Part shown: piece by piece, positions 2,832 through 55,441 of the stretch | Position numbering within the stretch: the first letter of the stretch is position 1 | How the letters are laid out: every line of letters starts with the position of its first letter | NCBI GenBank assembly: GCA_021787565.1 | Contig: JAJYLT010000003.1 | Location: forward strand, 79,775 to 143,774 | Source of the DNA: Acidobacteriota bacterium | Lineage (GTDB): Bacteria; Acidobacteriota; UBA4820; DSQY01 | Length of the DNA: 64,000 bases | Direction of reading: 5' to 3' | Position numbers and translations under genes: made by a program | The notes under the pieces: generated by a model | Seen by the model: only the letters and a program-made list of their open reading frames with translations | Databases searched by the model: none | What the model was told of the DNA's origin: nothing

Positions 2832-5800
2832 ATGGACACGCACAAGGGTGGCGGCCAGGCTGGCAGCACCGGCAACCGCAAGGTCACAGCCACGCCCCAG
2901 ATCAGCAATTCGAAGGATCCTTCGCCGCCGGACAATTCGCAGCCGCCAGAAGTCGGCCTGTCCACGGAGGCGCTCGTTCCGTTTCACCTGGATCGGCGGT
3001 TCACTTCTCCAGAGTGCGATCCGCTGGATGGTGCCGCCTACCAACGCCGGGCCTCCAAGATCATGAACACGGATGGGTCCACGGTGTTCGCCATGGAGAA
3101 CGCCGAGGTCCCCGCGGACTGGAGCCAGCTGGCCACGGACATCCTGATCAGCAAATACTTCCGCAAGGCCGGTGTGCCGGGCACGGGCCACGAGACCTCC
3201 ATCCGCCAGGTGATCCGCCGCATCGCCCATACTCTCAGGATCGAGGGTGAGAAGTTCGGGGGCTACTTCACGGACAAGGAGGAGGCCGATGTCTTCGAGG
3301 CCGAGCTCTCCCACCTGCTCCTGACCCAGAGGGGGGCATTCAATTCGCCCGTCTGGTTCAATCTGGGGCTCTGGCACGAATACGGGATCGAGGGGTCGGG
3401 CGGCGCCTACTACTGGAGCGCCGAGACCGGGCAGATCGAGGAGACGTCCAACGCCTATCAGCACCCCCAGTGCTCCGCGTGCTTCATCCAGAGCGTGGAC
3501 GACGACCTGATGAGCATCTTCCAGCTGGCCAAGAACGAGGCCCGGCTGTTCAAGTACGGATCGGGCACCGGCAGCAACTTCTCGCGGATCCGCTCCCGGG
3601 AAGAGAGGCTCTCCGGCGGGGGCACCTCATCGGGTCTGATGAGCTTTCTCGAGGTCCTGGATCGCGCCGCCGGCGCCACCAAGTCCGGCGGAACCACCCG
3701 GCGCGCCGCCAAGATGGTCTGCCTGGACATGGACCATCCCGAGGTAGAGGACTTCATCAACTGGAAGCGCCGGGAGGAGAACAAGGCGCGGGTGCTGGCC
3801 GAGGCGGGGATCGACCTGGACGATGCGGTGCACACCGTCTCGGGCCAGAACGCCAACAACTCGCTGCGCATCACCGACGCCTTCATGGAGGCCTACGAAA
3901 AGGACGGAGAGTGGACCACCACCTACCGGACCAGCGGAGAGCCCGCGCACACCCACCGGGCCCGTGATCTCATGCGCCAGATCGCCGTGGCCGCGTGGGA
4001 GTGCGGCGACCCGGGGCTGCAATTCGACAGCACCATCAACCGCTGGCACGCGTGCAAGGCCACCGACCGCATCCACGCCTCCAACCCTTGCTCCGAGTAC
4101 ATGTTCCTGGACGATTCGGCCTGCAACCTCGCCAGCCTGAACCTCATGAAGTTCCTGAATGAAGAGGGCGACTTCGACGTGGAGGGCTACAAGCACGCCG
4201 TGGGCATCTTCATCACCGCCCAGGAGATCCTGGTGGACCTCTCCTCCTACCCCACCGAGACCATCGCCAAGAACAGCCACGACTTCCGGCCCCTCGGCCT
4301 CGGCTACGCCAATCTCGGGACCCTCCTGATGGTCCTGGGCATCCCCTACGACAGTCCCAAGGCCTTCGCGTGGTGCGGCGCGCTCACCAGCCTCATGACC
4401 GGGCAGGCCTACCTGGTCTCCTCCCTGCTGGCCAAGCGCAAGGGCCCCTTCCCCGGCTATGCCAAGAACCGGGAATCCATGCTGGACGTCATCAAGATGC
4501 ACCGGGACGCCGGCCACAAGGTGGAGCTGGATTACCTCCCGGAGAGCCTCGGCCTCGCCAGCCGGCAGGTTTGGGACGACGCGCTGGTCTTCGGTCGTCA
4601 GTTCGGCTTCCGCAACGCCCAGACCACGGTGCTGGCTCCCACGGGAACCATCGGCCTGCTCATGGATTGCGATACCACCGGCATCGAGCCTGACTTCTCC
4701 CAGGTCAAGTTCAAGAAGCTGGCTGGCGGCGGCTACTTCAAGATCGTGAACCAGTCGGTGGAGCGCGCCCTGCACGCTCTCGGCTATCCCCCCGCCCAGA
4801 TCCAGGAGATGCTGCGGTATCTCGTGGGCACGGGGCAGCTGGCCGGCACTCCCCACATCCATCCAGCCAGCCTGATGACCAAGGGATTCACGGAGGAAGA
4901 GGTGGCTCGCGTGGAGAGCCAGCTCGGGCGGGTGGTGGACCTTCCTCAGGCCTTTTCCGCCTTCGTCCTGGGCGACGACTGCGTCCGGAGGCTGGGATTC
5001 ACCCCGGAGGAGGCCGGCAAGCCGGGCTTCAACGTGCTCGCCGCCCTCGGTTTCAGCGATGCCCAGATCGAGGAGGCTTCCGCCGTGGCCTGCGGCCACA
5101 TGACGCTGGAAGGCGCCCCCTACCTGAAGGAGGAGCACCTGCCCGTGTTCGACTGCGCCAACCGTTGCGGAAGGCACGGCAAGCGGTTCATCGCCCCCCT
5201 CGGCCACGTCAAGATGATGGCGGCGGCCCAGCCCTTCCTGTCCGGCGCCATCAGCAAGACGGTCAACCTGCCCGTCTCCATCATGCCGGAGGAAATCGAG
5301 CGGATCTACGTGGAGGGCTGGAAGCGCGGTCTGAAGGCCCTCGCCGTCTATAGGGACGGCTCCAAGGTCACCCAGCCCCTCTCGGACGCCTCCACCCAGA
5401 AGGCCGCCAAGACGGAGACGGCCTCGGCGCCGGCCCCCGTCGAACAGCTCTGGCGCACGCCGCTTCAGCGCCGCAGGCTGCCGAAAAAGCGCGACGGATT
5501 CACCCAGGAGGCGCGCGTAGGCGGACAGAAGGTCTACCTGCGGACGGGCGAGTACGCCGACGGCCGCCTGGGCGAGGTCTTCATCGACATGCACAAGGAG
5601 GGGGCCGCCTTCCGCTCCCTCATGAACTGCTTCGCCATCGCCATTTCGCTCGGCCTCCAGTACGGCGTTCCGCTGGAGGAGTACGTGGACTGCTTCACCT
5701 TCACGCGCTTCGAGCCCCAGGGGCCCGTCACGGACCACCCCAACATCAAATACGCCACCTCGGTCATCGACTACATCTTCCGAGTCCTGGGCATGGAGTA

Positions 5801-6089
5801 CCTGGGAAGGACCGACTTCGTGCAGGTGAAGCCGGACGAGCTCGAGAAGGCCCAGGCCGAGAAGACGCTGACCTCGCCCACGGCGAGCGCCACCGAGGTC
5901 GCCGCCGCGGAGAAGACCCTCTCCTCGCAGGTTCCAGTCTACAAGGCCGTCGGCGGGAACCCGCTCTCCAGCCACCTTTCGACCATGATGGGCGATGCCC
6001 CGTTCTGCAACATCTGCGGCCACATCACGGTGCGGAACGGTTCCTGCTACAAATGCCTGAACTGCGGCAACAGCCTAGGGTGCAGCTAG
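2832..6089 (+). CDS. nrdJ: adenosylcobalamin-dependent ribonucleoside-diphosphate/triphosphate reductase, class II
   Basis: About 1085 aa. Contains the class II RNR motifs [22 protein letters not shown] and [10 protein letters not shown], with a C-terminal Cys-rich zinc ribbon (CNICGH...CYKCLNCGN). Start chosen at ATG 2832, which follows a GGGAGG RBS; the ORF track starts at 2784. Confidence 0.9.
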
Positions 6090-6115
6090 ACATCCCGGTG
6101 GAAGGTCAATCGAAG

Positions 6116-6150
6116 GAAAGGGGGCGCGGTTCACGCGCCCCCTTTCCTTT
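6116..6150. terminator. bidirectional rho-independent terminator between convergent nrdJ and EamA genes
   Basis: GGGGGCGCG-gttca-CGCGCCCCC hairpin (6120-6142), flanked by an A-rich tract upstream and TTTCCTTT downstream. Confidence 0.7.
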
Positions 6151-6205
6151 CGGGCGGTGGTCTCTCCGCACCGGTGCGACCAGGTGCCGCATCCCGCGGG
6201 AGCCG

Positions 6206-7111
6206 TCAGCCCGAGAGCGGCTCCTCGACCTCCGGGCGGCGCATGGTCAACAAGGTCACGCTGATCACGACCACGGCCGCGCCCAGGGCCTGAACGGGAT
6301 AGAGCCTCTCCCCGAGCAGCAGCACCGCGAGCCCCGTGGCCACCACCGGAATCACGTTGGTGAAGGCGGCCACGATGGAGGCCTTCAGGTGGGCCAGCGA
6401 AACGTTCAGGAGCAGATAGGCAAGAAAGGAGCAGCCGATCCCGAGGTAAAGGACGGCCAGCCAGGCCCTGGGGCCGGCCTGCGGCATCCCCCGCGTTGAA
6501 AGATCCCAGAGGGCGAACGGCAGGTACATGGCGGCCGCGTAAAGGGCCTGCAGCCGCGTGATGGCGACGGCGTTGTAGCGCGAGAGCAGGCGGCGGGCCA
6601 GAACCGTGTAGACCGAGGCGGCGAAGGCCGCGGCCAGGATGAAACCGTTGCCCGCCAGGCTCCCGCCGAAGGCGCTTCTGAGCCCTCCCGCGGTGACCAG
6701 GAGGAATATGCCCCCAAGGGAGAGCAAGATGAGCAGCACCTCCGCCGCGACGATCCTGACCTTCAGCCAGAAGACTTCGAGAAGCAGGACGTAGATGGGA
6801 ATCGTGCAGATGAGGATGGCCGCCGTCGATGCGAGCGTTCGCTGGATGCCCATGGCCTCGAGGTAGAAATAAACTCCCGGCTCGAACAGGGCGAGGACCA
6901 GGATCTTCCAGTAGCCCGTCCGATCCACGGGACTGGCCTTCAGCCAGGGAGAGAAGACGAAAAAGACCGCCGCTCCGAGCAGGAAGCGCAGGAATATGAG
7001 CTCCGAAGGGGTGAAGGCGGAAAGCGCGATCTTGGTGCCCACGAAGGAGGCGCCGAAGAGAAGGGACATACCCACGAGGGCGGCCAGCGCCCCGGCCTTG
7101 GCGCCTCTCAT
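6206..7111 (-). CDS. EamA/DMT-family permease (10-TM drug/metabolite transporter)
   Basis: Hydrophobic ~300 aa protein with a duplicated EamA-like 5-TM architecture. ATG at 7111 overlaps the queC stop (ATGA); the ORF track extends to 7255, but that upstream part is Arg/Pro-rich junk. Confidence 0.75.
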   Translation of the reverse strand: MRGAKAGALAALVGMSLLFGASFVGTKIALSAFTPSELIFLRFLLGAAVFFVFSPWLKASPVDRTGYWKILVLALFEPGVYFYLEAMGIQRTLASTAAILICTIPIYVLLLEVFWLKVRIVAAEVLLILLSLGGIFLLVTAGGLRSAFGGSLAGNGFILAAAFAASVYTVLARRLLSRYNAVAITRLQALYAAAMYLPFALWDLSTRGMPQAGPRAWLAVLYLGIGCSFLAYLLLNVSLAHLKASIVAAFTNVIPVVATGLAVLLLGERLYPVQALGAAVVVISVTLLTMRRPEVEEPLSG

Positions 7112-38772: not shown

Positions 38773-39264
38773 ATGGCCGAACCCATGAAGATCGCCCAGG
38801 ATTGCGTGGTCACCATCGACTACACCCTCACCGACGACGCCGGCGCCGTCATCGACAGCAGCTCGGACGGCGAGCCCCTCACCTACCTCCACGGCCACTC
38901 CCAGATCATCCCCGGCCTCGAAAAGGCGCTCGAGGGGAAGGTCAAGGGCGAGAAGCACCAGATGCACGTCCCGGCCTCCGAAGGTTACGGCGACCACGAC
39001 CCCGAGAAGGTCTTCACCGAGCCGCGCGACCGCTTCGACTTCGAGGTGGAGGCCGGCCAGATCCTTCAGGCCCACGGCGAGGACGGCGAGACCCTCACCT
39101 TCCAGGTCGTCGAGGTCAGCGACCAGGGGGTGAAGCTCGACGGAAACCATCCCCTGGCCGGCAAGAACCTCAACTTCGACGTGACCGTCATCGAGGTCCG
39201 CGGCGCCGCCGCCGAGGAGCTGGAGCACGGCCACGCCCACTCGGGCGACGGCCACCACCACTGA
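38773..39264 (+). CDS. slyD: FKBP-type peptidyl-prolyl cis-trans isomerase SlyD with His-rich metal-binding tail
   Basis: FKBP domain plus IF insertion and the C-terminal HGHAHSGDGHHH tail. Confidence 0.9.
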   Translation: MAEPMKIAQDCVVTIDYTLTDDAGAVIDSSSDGEPLTYLHGHSQIIPGLEKALEGKVKGEKHQMHVPASEGYGDHDPEKVFTEPRDRFDFEVEAGQILQAHGEDGETLTFQVVEVSDQGVKLDGNHPLAGKNLNFDVTVIEVRGAAAEELEHGHAHSGDGHHH

Positions 39265-52347: not shown

Positions 52348-52690
52348 GTTGCCCCCTTCTCGAGATGAGACTTTTGCCGGATGCTCTCGCCGCCTCCCCG
52401 CCCCCGTGAGGTGGCCTAAAGCTCAGCATAGTGCAAGGCGGGGACGCATTCAACACGGCTGGGGCGCATCGGCCTCCCCTCTTGTTGCGGACGCCCCGAC
52501 AGAACCCGGGGCGGCTGGCCGATCCCCAGGGCGCACGGTATCGCCCGGTCGGCGCAGGCCAGGGGGCCGCTGGGCCATTTGGCTCACCCGGGAGGCACCG
52601 CGGCGGCTGGTTCTGTTCCACCGTCCTTCCCAGCCGGTGCTATAATGCCGCCTCGCGGGCATCCGTCCGCGGTTCCTGGAGGAGCAGCTC

Positions 52691-53599
52691 ATGTCCATGC
52701 TTGCCGTGAGAAGGTCCGTGGCCAACGCCATCCCTGGCCGGCTGGTTCGGGTATTCGCCTCCCCCTACGTCTCGGGGGATTCGATGGACAAGGGACTGCG
52801 CGCGGCCGACGACCTCAACAAGATGAAGGGGATCGAATCCACGATGGACGTGCTGGGCGAGGCCGAAAAGACCGAGGCCAAGGTCCGGCATGCCGTCGAT
52901 CTCTACCTGAAGACCCTGGATGCCTTGAAGGACAGGCCCTATTGCTCCATTTCGGTCAAGCCGGGCCATTTCGGATACTACGTGGACCCCGATCTCTGCC
53001 GGCGCAACATCGGGGAGATGGCCGCCGCATGCCAGAAGGCGGGCCGCGGCCTGACCATCGACATGGAGGACACGGACCTCACCGACTTCACCCTCCAGCT
53101 TTACAGGGAGCTCAAGCCCAAGTACCCCGTTCTGGGGACGGTCCTTCAGACCCGCCTCCACCGCACCCTCGACGACATCGACAGCCTCGATGGCCTGCAG
53201 GCCCATATCCGCGCCTGCATCGGCATCTACAATGTCCCCGAACCGCTGGCGACCCAGAACAGGCGCGACATGAAGGAGAGCCTCCTCCGGGTGATCCGCA
53301 AGCTGTTCGAGCGGGGCCACTATGTCTGCATCGCCACCCACGACGTGGAGTACATCGGCAAGGCCAGGGCCATCATCGCCGAGATGAAGATCCCCAGGGA
53401 GCGTTACGAATTTCAGATGCTCCTGGGCGTTCCGCGGGAAAAGATCCAGCGAGAGCTCGTGGCTGCCGGAGAGAAGGTGCGCCTCTACCTTCCCTTCGCC
53501 GTGGACTGGGACGACGCCATCGCCTACCTCAGGCGGCGCATGGTGGAAAGCCCCTCCATGACCGCCCTGGTCCTGAAGAATATCGTCAAGCGGGGCTGA
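52691..53599 (+). CDS. proline dehydrogenase (monofunctional PRODH/PutA catalytic domain family)
   Basis: 302 aa PRODH TIM-barrel family. Perfect TATAAT -10 at about 52638 and a GGAGGAG RBS. Confidence 0.8.
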   Translation: MSMLAVRRSVANAIPGRLVRVFASPYVSGDSMDKGLRAADDLNKMKGIESTMDVLGEAEKTEAKVRHAVDLYLKTLDALKDRPYCSISVKPGHFGYYVDPDLCRRNIGEMAAACQKAGRGLTIDMEDTDLTDFTLQLYRELKPKYPVLGTVLQTRLHRTLDDIDSLDGLQAHIRACIGIYNVPEPLATQNRRDMKESLLRVIRKLFERGHYVCIATHDVEYIGKARAIIAEMKIPRERYEFQMLLGVPREKIQRELVAAGEKVRLYLPFAVDWDDAIAYLRRRMVESPSMTALVLKNIVKRG

Positions 53600-53844
53600 G
53601 GCCCCAAATACCGCGATGGAATTTGGCGCGTAGGAGCGCCGCCCCCGGCGCGATGGGCCGTTCACGGGAACCGCATCGTCTCAGCGGGTTCCCCCGGATC
53701 GCGGCGAGGCGCCGCTCCTACAGAGGGGTTGCGCCTCCATCGCGAAATTTCGGGAGGCGACCTCCTCCGGCGAGGCACCGGCGGGCTCTGCCGCCGTCGT
53801 GTGGAGGCCGCTTGTCCTCCCGGTGGAGGGCCTTGGGCCAGTAC

Positions 53845-54059
53845 TTGACCTTTTAGCAACAAGGACTTATCTTATCGAAAGACGAATTGATGTGACGAAC
53901 CTCGGGGAAGATGGGCTTTGCCCGGTAGGCCCCGTGGAGAGTGTATAGACGAGCGGGACGGGTGAGTACCAGTGCGGAAAGGCCCGTATCGTTCGTTGAC
54001 CCTCCCTTACATCCATTTCCCCTCTTCACTCTAAGGGCCCGATCGGGCCCGCTTCTTTT
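53845..54059 (+). ncRNA. candidate small RNA / attenuated leader: promoter (TTGACC-N17-TATCTT) followed ~160 nt downstream by an intrinsic terminator hairpin
   Basis: -35 at 53845-53850, -10 at 53868-53873. GGGCCC-gatc-GGGCCC hairpin at 54035-54050 followed by GCTTCTTTT. No plausible ORF lies between them. Confidence 0.4.
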
Positions 54060-54165
54060 AGCGGTGGGCGGTTCGGGCGTGATAGACTTCAGTCGTGCGG
54101 GGCCGGCATCCGCACCCCCTATGGGCACGGGCGCACGAAGCGCCCCCCACGAAAGGAGTCAAGCC

Positions 54166-55368
54166 ATGGCGCACGACCTCGCTCCCAAAGAGATCATCGC
54201 CGAGAAACTCGACCAGGCGGCGCGGAAGATCAACGAGCAAGCCATCGACCTGTGGGTGACCTTCGTCCAGGAGACGAGCGCCGGGGCGGAGCGCGTCTTC
54301 TCCTACGTTTCTCCCGGCCACCTGACCTGGGAGAGCGTGATCGCCGTAACCCCCACGGGGGAACGCTTCGTCATCTGCGGCAAGTTCGACCAGCAGGACT
54401 TCGAGGAGTCGGGCCTCTTCACCGAGGTTTACACCTACGTGGAGGATTTCAAGGAGCCCTTCGGGCGCCTCCTCCAGCGGGTGAAGCCCGGCAAGGTCGC
54501 CCTCAACTTCTCGTTCAACGACCCCACGGCGGACGGCATCACTCACGGCAAGTTCGTCTTTCTTCAGGGGCTCCTCAAGGAAATGGCTCCGTCCGCGGAG
54601 GTGGTCTCGGCCGAGGCGGTGGTCCTCTCGCTCATCTCCAGCAAGAGCCCCATCGAGCGCTCCGCCATCCAGGAGGGGGTGGATCTCACCGTCAAGATCT
54701 TCGGAGAGATCAGCGCGTTCCTCAGGCCTGGCCTCACGGAGAAAGAGATCTACGGGTTCATCCAGGAGCGCATCCTATCCTACGGCGTCACCCCGAGCTT
54801 CCAGACCCTCGTCTTCGCGGGCGACCGCGGGGCCGGATCGGGCCACGGAAGCGCGACGGAGAACCCGGTTCAACCGGGCGATCTGGTGCACGTGGACATG
54901 GGCGTCTTCGTCCGCGGCTACGCCTCCGACATGCAGCGCACCTGGTACGTCCTGAAGCCCGGCGAGGAGCGCGCGCCCGAGCCGGCCCAGAAGGGCTTCG
55001 ACACCATCGTCCGCTCCATCGAGGCTTCGGGCCGGGCCCTCAAGCCGGGAGCCAAGGGCATCGAACTGGACACCATCGCCCGCAAGGTGGTGACCGACGC
55101 CGGCTATCCCGAGTATCCCCACGCCCTCGGTCATCAGATCGGCCGCCACGTCCACGATGGCGGAGCGCTCCTGGGCCCCGCCTGGGCCCGTTACCGGAAC
55201 ACCCCCTTCCTCGTGTTGGAGGAAGGGCAGATCTTCACCCTGGAACCCTCGCTGACCGTTCCGGGCTTTGGAGCCGTGGGTATCGAGGAGGACGTGATCA
55301 TCACTCCCGAGGGAGCGCGCTACATGGCGCCGCCCCAGCGCCATCTCTGGACCGTGAGAGGGAAGTGA
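54166..55368 (+). CDS. M24-family Xaa-Pro aminopeptidase / prolidase-like peptidase
   Basis: Creatinase N-terminal domain plus pita-bread C-terminus with metal ligands (HVDMG, HALGHQIGRHVHD, E..E); AAAGGAG RBS. Confidence 0.8.
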   Translation: MAHDLAPKEIIAEKLDQAARKINEQAIDLWVTFVQETSAGAERVFSYVSPGHLTWESVIAVTPTGERFVICGKFDQQDFEESGLFTEVYTYVEDFKEPFGRLLQRVKPGKVALNFSFNDPTADGITHGKFVFLQGLLKEMAPSAEVVSAEAVVLSLISSKSPIERSAIQEGVDLTVKIFGEISAFLRPGLTEKEIYGFIQERILSYGVTPSFQTLVFAGDRGAGSGHGSATENPVQPGDLVHVDMGVFVRGYASDMQRTWYVLKPGEERAPEPAQKGFDTIVRSIEASGRALKPGAKGIELDTIARKVVTDAGYPEYPHALGHQIGRHVHDGGALLGPAWARYRNTPFLVLEEGQIFTLEPSLTVPGFGAVGIEEDVIITPEGARYMAPPQRHLWTVRGK

Positions 55369-55441
55369 CGATTCGCCGGGGGGTGTGTTGAACCGAGGCG
55401 ACCGACTAGTCCGGGCGGGATGCCTTCTCTGGGAGGGTCTC

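Follow-up and report, generated by a model that had tools for sequence, protein, structure and literature searches.

Between a proline dehydrogenase gene (PRODH) and an M24 Xaa-Pro peptidase gene, the 64-kb window (the whole stretch of DNA that was analysed) carries a compact promoter-to-terminator unit, which is probably a lineage-specific small regulatory RNA and not the leader of the M24 gene. As judged from comparative sequence data, the unit has about an even chance of being an sRNA of approximately 180 nt that has its own promoter, overlaps the 3' UTR of PRODH, shares a terminator with it and acts via a C/U-rich tract on purine-rich Shine-Dalgarno (SD)-like sites. An earlier note on this DNA had proposed either an independent small RNA or an attenuator. 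The first proposal agrees with the comparative data: a conserved -10 hexamer is followed by a variable discriminator, an invariant G-free tract abuts a terminator with a conserved stem, and in rearranged strains the homology stops exactly at the U-tract.

Instead of one long leader, the PRODH-M24 gap contains three separate things, namely a mobile palindromic insertion, the orphan promoter-terminator unit, and an extended -10 promoter of M24 with a conserved 5' leader. The immediate practical value of the analysis is the annotation of the gap as these three parts. The features of the locus are as follows, with the basis of each assignment in parentheses where it applies.

DUF1015 gene, minus strand, neighbour of the PRODH-M24 locus
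52691-53599, plus strand, PRODH, with the stop codon at 53597-53599
53600-53753, no strand assigned, palindromic MITE-like insertion of approximately 154 nt directly after the PRODH stop; upstream context, strain-specific
53845-53873, plus strand, candidate sigma-70-type promoter with -35 TTGACC (53845-53850), a 17-nt spacer and -10 TATCTT (53868-53873) (pattern scan)
53880-54059, plus strand, predicted transcript of approximately 180 nt (inferred from the promoter and terminator positions)
53903-53934, plus strand, predicted 5' hairpin CGGGG...GGGCUUUGCCC...CCCCG (MFE fold and both RNAalifold consensus structures)
53948-53997, plus strand, predicted long hairpin P2 (GACGAGCGGGACGGGU ... GCCCGUAUCGUUCGUU), apical part variable (fold predictions)
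53999-54034, plus strand, G-free pyrimidine-rich tract ACCCUCCCUUACAUCCAUUUCCCCUCUUCACUCUAA, the proposed seed or effector region (conservation)
54007-54034, plus strand, invariant core of the G-free tract, 28 nt (28/28 invariant in 10 variants)
54035-54059, plus strand, intrinsic terminator with stem GGGCCC/GGGCCC, loop GAUC and tail GCUUCUUUU (pattern scan, conservation)
54080-54088, plus strand, M24 extended -10 box TGATAGACT, 21 nt past the U-tract; downstream boundary, outside the unit
To 54165, plus strand, conserved M24 5' leader, in which hairpins GUGCGG..CCGCAC and GGGCGC..GCGCCC precede the RBS; outside the unit
54166-55368, plus strand, M24 peptidase (Xaa-Pro peptidase), from the ATG at 54166
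From 55442, plus strand, CBS-domain gene
RtcB gene, minus strand, near the CBS-domain gene

Gene neighbourhood and coding potential

A genome scan with the M24 protein found that the genomes closest to the window are MAGs labelled Acidobacteriota. The nearest relatives that bear a class or family name, at approximately 66-67% M24 identity, are Thermoanaerobaculaceae or Thermoanaerobaculia. The gap measures 566 nt, in line with the 565 nt given previously, and the AT-rich patch described there is real, with a GC content of 0.49-0.51 over 53800-53949 against approximately 0.65 in the surroundings.

The unit was said to contain no ORF of credible length, and this held: the sole plus-strand ORF codes for 20 aa (53972-54034). 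This ORF runs from GTG 53972 to a stop codon at the terminator foot and contains three Pro codons. An SD sequence is lacking, the ORF lies within predicted hairpin P2, and the start codon differs between loci (GTG in the window, ATG in locus L039, GAG in L056). It does not represent the conserved, translatable short ORF with regulatory codons that would be found in a leader-peptide attenuator. Two minus-strand ORFs (49 and 91 aa) over the promoter and terminator had no Pfam match, and they cross regions that are replaced in other strains. A small-protein reading of the unit was rejected on the lack of Pfam matches and on the start of the short ORF, which is not conserved (GAG in L056).

Close relatives of the window (L004, at 4261-4797, L005, L058, L061, L063 and L066-L068) have an additional gene between M24 and the CBS-domain gene, which encodes a 178-aa FKBP-type peptidyl-prolyl isomerase that is apparently a lipoprotein. 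The corresponding M24-CBS interval of the window (55369-55441) is without it, and the only FKBP domain elsewhere in the window, at 38794-39051, is 31% identical. In these relatives PRODH, the Xaa-Pro peptidase and FKBP make up a proline-themed cluster.

Candidate promoter, terminator and predicted fold

The TTGACC-N17-TATCTT site is present as had been described and matches the consensus at 9/12 positions. Sites of this kind occur once in 3 kb, against 0.4 expected from shuffled sequences, and three times in 20 kb, against 1.5 expected. For terminator-like sites the corresponding numbers are 2 against 1.4 in 3 kb and 14 against 10.1 in 20 kb. As bare patterns, the promoter and the terminator are not beyond chance, and the unit is credible because of its conservation across 10 distinct genome variants, not because of pattern counts. 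The better-supported promoters of the organism, those of PRODH and M24, are of the extended -10 type, which the site at 53845-53873 is not. The PRODH box, TGCTATAAT, lies at 52638-52646, approximately 45 nt upstream of the ATG, and is also found in L039. Together, the boxes of PRODH, M24 and a gene in L059 (see below) suggest frequent use of extended -10 promoters in this lineage.

The terminator GGGCCC-GATC-GGGCCC was confirmed at 54035-54050, followed by GCTTCTTTT to 54059. It does lie upstream of the M24 RBS, as stated before, at a distance of approximately 96 nt to the GGAG at 54155-54158 instead of approximately 110 nt. The hairpin consists of six G-C pairs followed by UUCUUUU, a short U-tract. 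All 12 stem positions are invariant and two of the four loop positions vary (GAUC, AAUC, GACC). Because the stem is conserved while the loop varies, the constraint appears to act on an RNA hairpin. The terminator would define a short transcript without coding potential. This transcript is predicted to start at A53879 or A53880, 6-7 nt past the -10 hexamer, and to end in the U-tract. From 53879, immediately after the variable discriminator, a conserved AAGA(Y)GA marks the point where conservation resumes at the predicted +1.

Changes in the predicted 5' hairpin are mostly from G-C to G-U. In P2, the 5' strand is invariant at 13/16 positions, and pairs are broken in L067, L004 and L005. The fold of the predicted 183-nt RNA is no more stable than that of shuffled sequence (z = -1.45). 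A covariance search across relatives had been proposed as a check, and it did not lend support: covariation was not significant in alignments of either 4 or 10 sequences (136/500 shuffles scored as well), and the 10-sequence consensus has no compensatory pairs. The RNAalifold partner predicted for the C/U tract differs between the 4- and 10-sequence alignments. In the MFE fold, 54015-54034 is open and CCCUCCCUUACAUC is paired with the 5' end.

Distribution and conservation of the unit

Homologous loci were collected by the M24-protein genome scan, by an exact metagenome scan with a 20-mer of the tract and from the contigs of a 90%-identity PRODH cluster. The unit was found in 16 loci, representing 10 distinct variants, and it follows PRODH in all 16. 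All of these loci belong to one narrow clade with at least 93% amino acid identity in PRODH. The unit is absent from the next PRODH relatives, L053 and L054 (78%) and L055 (74%), and from M24 relatives at 59-69% identity (L006-L023); among the latter, PRODH and M24 are only 60-100 nt apart in L007-L009. Because the next relatives lack it, the unit appears to be young and lineage-specific at this locus.

The fourfold-degenerate sites of PRODH, of which 57% of columns are invariant in 10 genomes, served as the neutral yardstick. The invariant positions in and near the unit are listed below.

PRODH stop to -35: 52% (4 genomes), at or below the neutral level
High invariance: -35 hexamer 5/6; -10 hexamer 6/6; tract 34/36; core of the tract 28/28; terminator stem 12/12
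At or below the neutral level: spacer 9/17; discriminator (53874-53878) 0/5; 5' hairpin 20/31; P2 apical loop region 7/18

The conservation of the promoter hexamers is statistically marginal (p approximately 0.02-0.04). The values for the tract (p = 8e-7) and for its core (p = 2e-7) were obtained against the 0.57 invariance of the PRODH fourfold sites in the same 10 genomes. The 5' domain is at the neutral level of invariance (20/31, 7/17) and the 3' tract is invariant, a pattern by which nucleotide-level purifying selection is seen to act on the 3' module. Retention of the unit after rearrangement says little about selection, since all homologues are close relatives (PRODH at or above the 93% given above).

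The tract includes CCCUCCC, UCCCCUC and UCCCCUCUU; the CCCUCCC motif is not itself invariant and has two natural variants. With no G in 36 nt, the tract is strictly strand-asymmetric, and it has neither dyad nor direct-repeat symmetry. Searches with a 25-mer allowing up to three mismatches, with nhmmer and with blastn found no second copy in the 64-kb window and no copy in loci from relatives whose PRODH or M24 is 78% identical or less.

Linkage to PRODH and rearrangements

The unit was found after PRODH in every close relative recovered, and the interval from the PRODH stop to 54035 has no terminator-like site. Without such a site in between, the PRODH mRNA probably terminates at this hairpin too. 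The candidate RNA would share its 3' end with the upstream gene, which is the arrangement of a 3'-UTR-associated sRNA. The earlier note had named, as a refuting scenario, that the hairpin is simply the PRODH terminator without promoter activity upstream. That scenario is partly right, in that the hairpin probably serves as the PRODH terminator too.

Three loci (L058, L061 and L063) and four others (L059, L060, L039 and L065) have an identical PRODH protein, and the two groups differ from each other as soon as the U-tract ends. The M24 promoter and gene follow in the first group. In L059 the U-tract is followed by a gene for a 1436-aa sensor-like protein with its own TGCTACAAT box (region 4453-6909), and in L060, L039 and L065 by unrelated sequence, in which the available DNA ends before any gene. 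On these alignments the L059-type rearrangement is very recent, and its breakpoint is exactly at the end of the U-tract. The 1436-aa protein, which stands in place of M24, has repeated LWIGT/GL.R-type propeller motifs and resembles a two-component sensor.

Three independent insertions flank the unit and none interrupts it. The 154-nt insertion after the PRODH stop folds into a hairpin of -84 kcal/mol and is absent in L004, L005, L039, L056, L058 and L066. In L067, a 335-nt element with the same ends occupies the same site (about 2961-3295). The ends of this MITE-like family are CCCCAAAT(A/C)CCGC(G/A)ATGGAA ... TTCCATCGCG(A/G)AATTTGGGG, and no second copy was found in the 64-kb window. A similar end, CCCAAATTCCGCGATCGAATGG, opens the foreign DNA right after the U-tract in L039, L059, L060 and L065.

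The constant position after PRODH also suits a reading in which the unit has no promoter of its own. The region would then be a long PRODH 3' UTR with an intrinsic terminator, and the tract would serve 3'-end stability or belong to a processed 3'-UTR-derived sRNA. This alternative is the main rival and is possible, but on the whole doubtful. It agrees with the lack of any other terminator-like site before 54035, with the approximately neutral evolution from the stop codon to P2 and with the weak support for the promoter hexamers in an organism whose better promoters are of the extended -10 type. It does not account for the invariance of the -10 (6/6) and -35 (5/6) hexamers around a variable spacer (9/17) and next to a fully variable discriminator (0/5), nor for the return of conservation at the predicted +1. 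The local AT-rich patch is typical of promoters, and a terminator alone would leave the 28 invariant nucleotides upstream of it unexplained.

Proposed action of the RNA and possible targets

For an sRNA with its own promoter, transcription would start at TTGACC-N17-TATCTT, about 250-290 nt downstream of the PRODH stop, and end at the GGGCCC-GAUC-GGGCCC/U-tract. The same terminator most likely ends the PRODH mRNA, and because the terminator is common to both, the sRNA would overlap the PRODH 3' UTR. The working part would be the 3' module, i.e. the 36-nt G-free C/U-rich tract (CCCUCCC ... UUUCCCCUCUUCAC) beside the terminator hairpin, and the 5' hairpins would be a loosely constrained scaffold. 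Base-pairing sRNAs usually have an invariant, single-strand-like tract next to the terminator, while in a riboswitch or attenuator the conserved part is the 5' sensor. The tract is proposed to pair with purine-rich SD-like stretches of target mRNAs and so to block their translation; less likely, it would titrate an RNA-binding protein.

One example of such pairing is GACCCUCCC, the perfect complement of GGGAGGGUC in the SD region of the nearby CBS-domain gene. It is given as an example only, as SD-like complements are common, and the two natural CCCUCCC variants are not compensated in the CBS SD region. In a target search of the 64-kb window, the best duplexes were no better than those of shuffled seeds (1/12 shuffles scored better). 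The top sites lie in the coding sequence of two paralogous genes at approximately 27600 and 28070, the latter giving the best duplex at -42.6 kcal/mol. The translation-initiation regions of M24 and PRODH pair poorly with the tract (-13 kcal/mol).

A related reading keeps the link to PRODH and gives the tract another task. The unit would be a riboregulator with an unusually long, invariant G-free tract of 28-36 nt that goes beyond a short seed. An RNA-binding protein could use this tract as a sponge or platform, or the tract could be the extended antisense partner of a specific purine-rich RNA encoded at another place in the genome. This reading is unlikely. If it were true, proline catabolism would be coupled to another process, and the RNA would be among the first functionally tractable sRNAs of Acidobacteriota.

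The tract could also be read as DNA. It lies 50-80 bp upstream of the TGATAGACT box, a position that is right for an upstream regulatory site of the M24 promoter, such as an activator, repressor or UP-like site. Its lack of a G and of any dyad or direct repeat speaks against such a site, and so does its contact with a hairpin of conserved stem and variable loop, which is an RNA-level signature. The 20 bp from the terminator to the box are less conserved than the tract (16/20 invariant in 3 genomes), and the tract is missing from distant relatives that have the same M24 box. Retention of the tract in the rearranged strains is uninformative on this point, because the rearrangement is very recent and the PRODH proteins are identical. 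A DNA site is accordingly regarded as improbable.

The M24 promoter and the attenuator reading

The M24 gene has an extended -10 box of its own. The motif TGnTAnAnT occurs once in the 300 nt upstream of M24 in 17/21 relatives, always 44-86 nt from the ATG, and it is conserved also in relatives without the unit. By an estimate from base composition, approximately 0.016 occurrences per locus would be expected by chance. The four loci without the box are L007-L009, in which M24 directly follows PRODH, and L023. Among three genomes, the M24 leader is invariant at 78/86 positions. M24 transcription most likely starts downstream of the terminator, so that the unit would not be part of the M24 leader.

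In relatives (L003-L022), the M24 leader contains GCCCGCC..GGCGGGC-type hairpins before a conserved CACGAAAGGAG RBS region, and the M24 5' leader may be a regulatory leader in its own right. In the MAG JBAWEQ01, the third of the insertions flanking the unit, an IS with perfect 17-bp inverted ends (CTCATCTTCGACAGTTG / CAACTGTCGAAGATGAG) lies inside the M24 -10 box, as seen from L056 4248-4367 (contig end) and L003 1-195 (contig start). Its 5-bp TGATA target duplication re-creates TGATAGACT next to M24, and the IS splits the assembly.

The second proposal of the earlier note, a transcription-attenuation leader of riboswitch-like or leader-peptide type with read-through from the 53845 promoter into M24, is very improbable in the light of these results. 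The unit is on the same strand as M24 and upstream of it, with the terminator 96 nt before the RBS; the 20-aa ORF with three Pro codons stops at the terminator foot, and the neighbouring genes have a common proline theme. Against this, the conserved extended -10 box of M24 lies downstream of the terminator and persists in relatives without the unit. With the box in this place, M24 would not depend on the promoter of the unit, and the terminator would lie outside the M24 5' UTR. The conservation gradient runs in the opposite direction to that of a riboswitch: no conserved 5' sensor domain precedes a more variable expression platform, and instead the 5' part is neutral and the 3' part invariant. 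The 20-aa ORF lacks an SD, is inside P2 and starts with GAG in L056. The unit gives way to unrelated DNA in L059, L060, L039 and L065, and no riboswitch or leader in Rfam matched at E<=10.

Least probable of all is that the tract is a Rho-utilisation (rut) site aiding PRODH termination: 36 nt without G and with many C are of the composition that Rho prefers, but rut sites are constrained in composition and not nucleotide by nucleotide, 28/28 positions of the core are invariant, and Rho would be redundant since an efficient-looking intrinsic terminator follows immediately.

Comparison with known RNAs

With Rfam 15, the sole alignment in a cmscan of 53000-55000 at E<=10 was to suhB/mmgR, with 16.8 bits (E = 2.4) where the gathering threshold is 41, and the whole window at gathering thresholds yielded only a tRNA. 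No family was found on the homologous loci or on the other metagenome matches, and the threshold was not reached by any family, including 6S, Acido-1, Acido-Lenti-1, RsaE, YrlA/Y RNA-like, riboswitches and leaders. As every test of Rfam membership failed, the unit belongs to no described family. A Y RNA had been considered in view of the nearby RtcB gene, and the idea was rejected: 53000-55000 has no YrlA/Y-RNA match, and there is no Ro/Rsr among the five annotated neighbour genes.

The mmgR/suhB RNA (RF00519) is an alpha-proteobacterial sRNA with a UUUCCUCCCU motif before its terminator. The unit has in common with it a UUUCC-C-CU-type pyrimidine stretch ahead of a terminator with a GGGCC stem. 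Such a match, made on low-complexity sequence and a terminator, is at chance level, and the unit is not a member of the family.

Anti-SD sRNAs with C-rich motifs include RsaE/RoxS in Firmicutes and the CcsR or 'cuckoo' RNAs in Alphaproteobacteria. The unit resembles them in its short predicted transcript, structured 5' part, C/U motifs complementary to purine-rich RBS and intrinsic terminator. It differs in having no sequence or covariance-model similarity, in coming from another phylum and in possessing one 36-nt G-free stretch, whereas RsaE/RoxS and CcsR have short C-runs in hairpin loops.

DapZ and MicL of enterobacteria are type I 3'-UTR-associated sRNAs, which have their own promoter and use the terminator of the mRNA. 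Like them, the unit has a candidate 3' end and terminator that are those of the upstream mRNA, and the seed at the terminator is the most conserved part, with a faster-evolving part upstream. The candidate promoter of the unit lies in the 3' UTR, approximately 250-290 nt after the stop codon, whereas theirs are inside the coding sequence. With riboswitch and attenuator leaders, the unit shares its position ahead of a metabolic gene transcribed in the same direction, along with a predicted promoter, structured RNA and an intrinsic terminator; unlike them, it precedes a gene with its own promoter past the terminator, its conservation gradient is inverted and it is separable from that gene.

On this comparison, the unit is best described as an ordinary kind of element that forms a new, narrowly distributed family. 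To our knowledge, no regulatory RNA has been reported for the lineage of the window, which is uncultured and probably Thermoanaerobaculia-like. Only four annotated sRNA families are given for Acidobacteriota in a 2022 review table (PMC9029176). The unit matters mainly because so few sRNAs are annotated in this phylum. If it is transcribed, the unit would add a new sRNA family with a physical link to proline catabolism, and 54007-54034 would be its candidate effector sequence.

Other loci resembling the unit

The exact metagenome scan with the 20-mer CCATTTCCCCTCTTCACTCT yielded 15 loci, and L039 is the single homologous one among them. Seven low-GC loci that share 31/34 nt with the tract were judged unrelated, as their promoter-to-terminator unit is on the opposite strand. 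In the low-GC contigs L038, L040, L043, L045, L049, L050 (two copies) and L052, a conserved unit of approximately 90 nt includes AGAGUGAAGAGGGGAAAUGGGGUAAGGGAG, the reverse complement of the tract, and is bounded by a TATAAT box on one side and a terminator-like hairpin with a U-run on the other. It has no Rfam match and constitutes a purine-rich candidate RNA of an unrelated organism with approximately 40% GC. The 31/34-nt likeness to the complement of the tract is probably a coincidence.

C/T-rich DNA upstream of M24 in L006 and L011 was considered as a distant homologue and rejected, having no terminator and no alignable similarity. In L053 (approximately 4030-4368) and L054 (approximately 4030-4360), PRODH is followed by a different conserved non-coding stretch of approximately 300 nt, which has no Rfam match. 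A promoter-like site, CTTGACC...TTTA(A/T)GTT, marks its beginning, it runs on into the next ORF downstream, and it may be a distinct structured leader.
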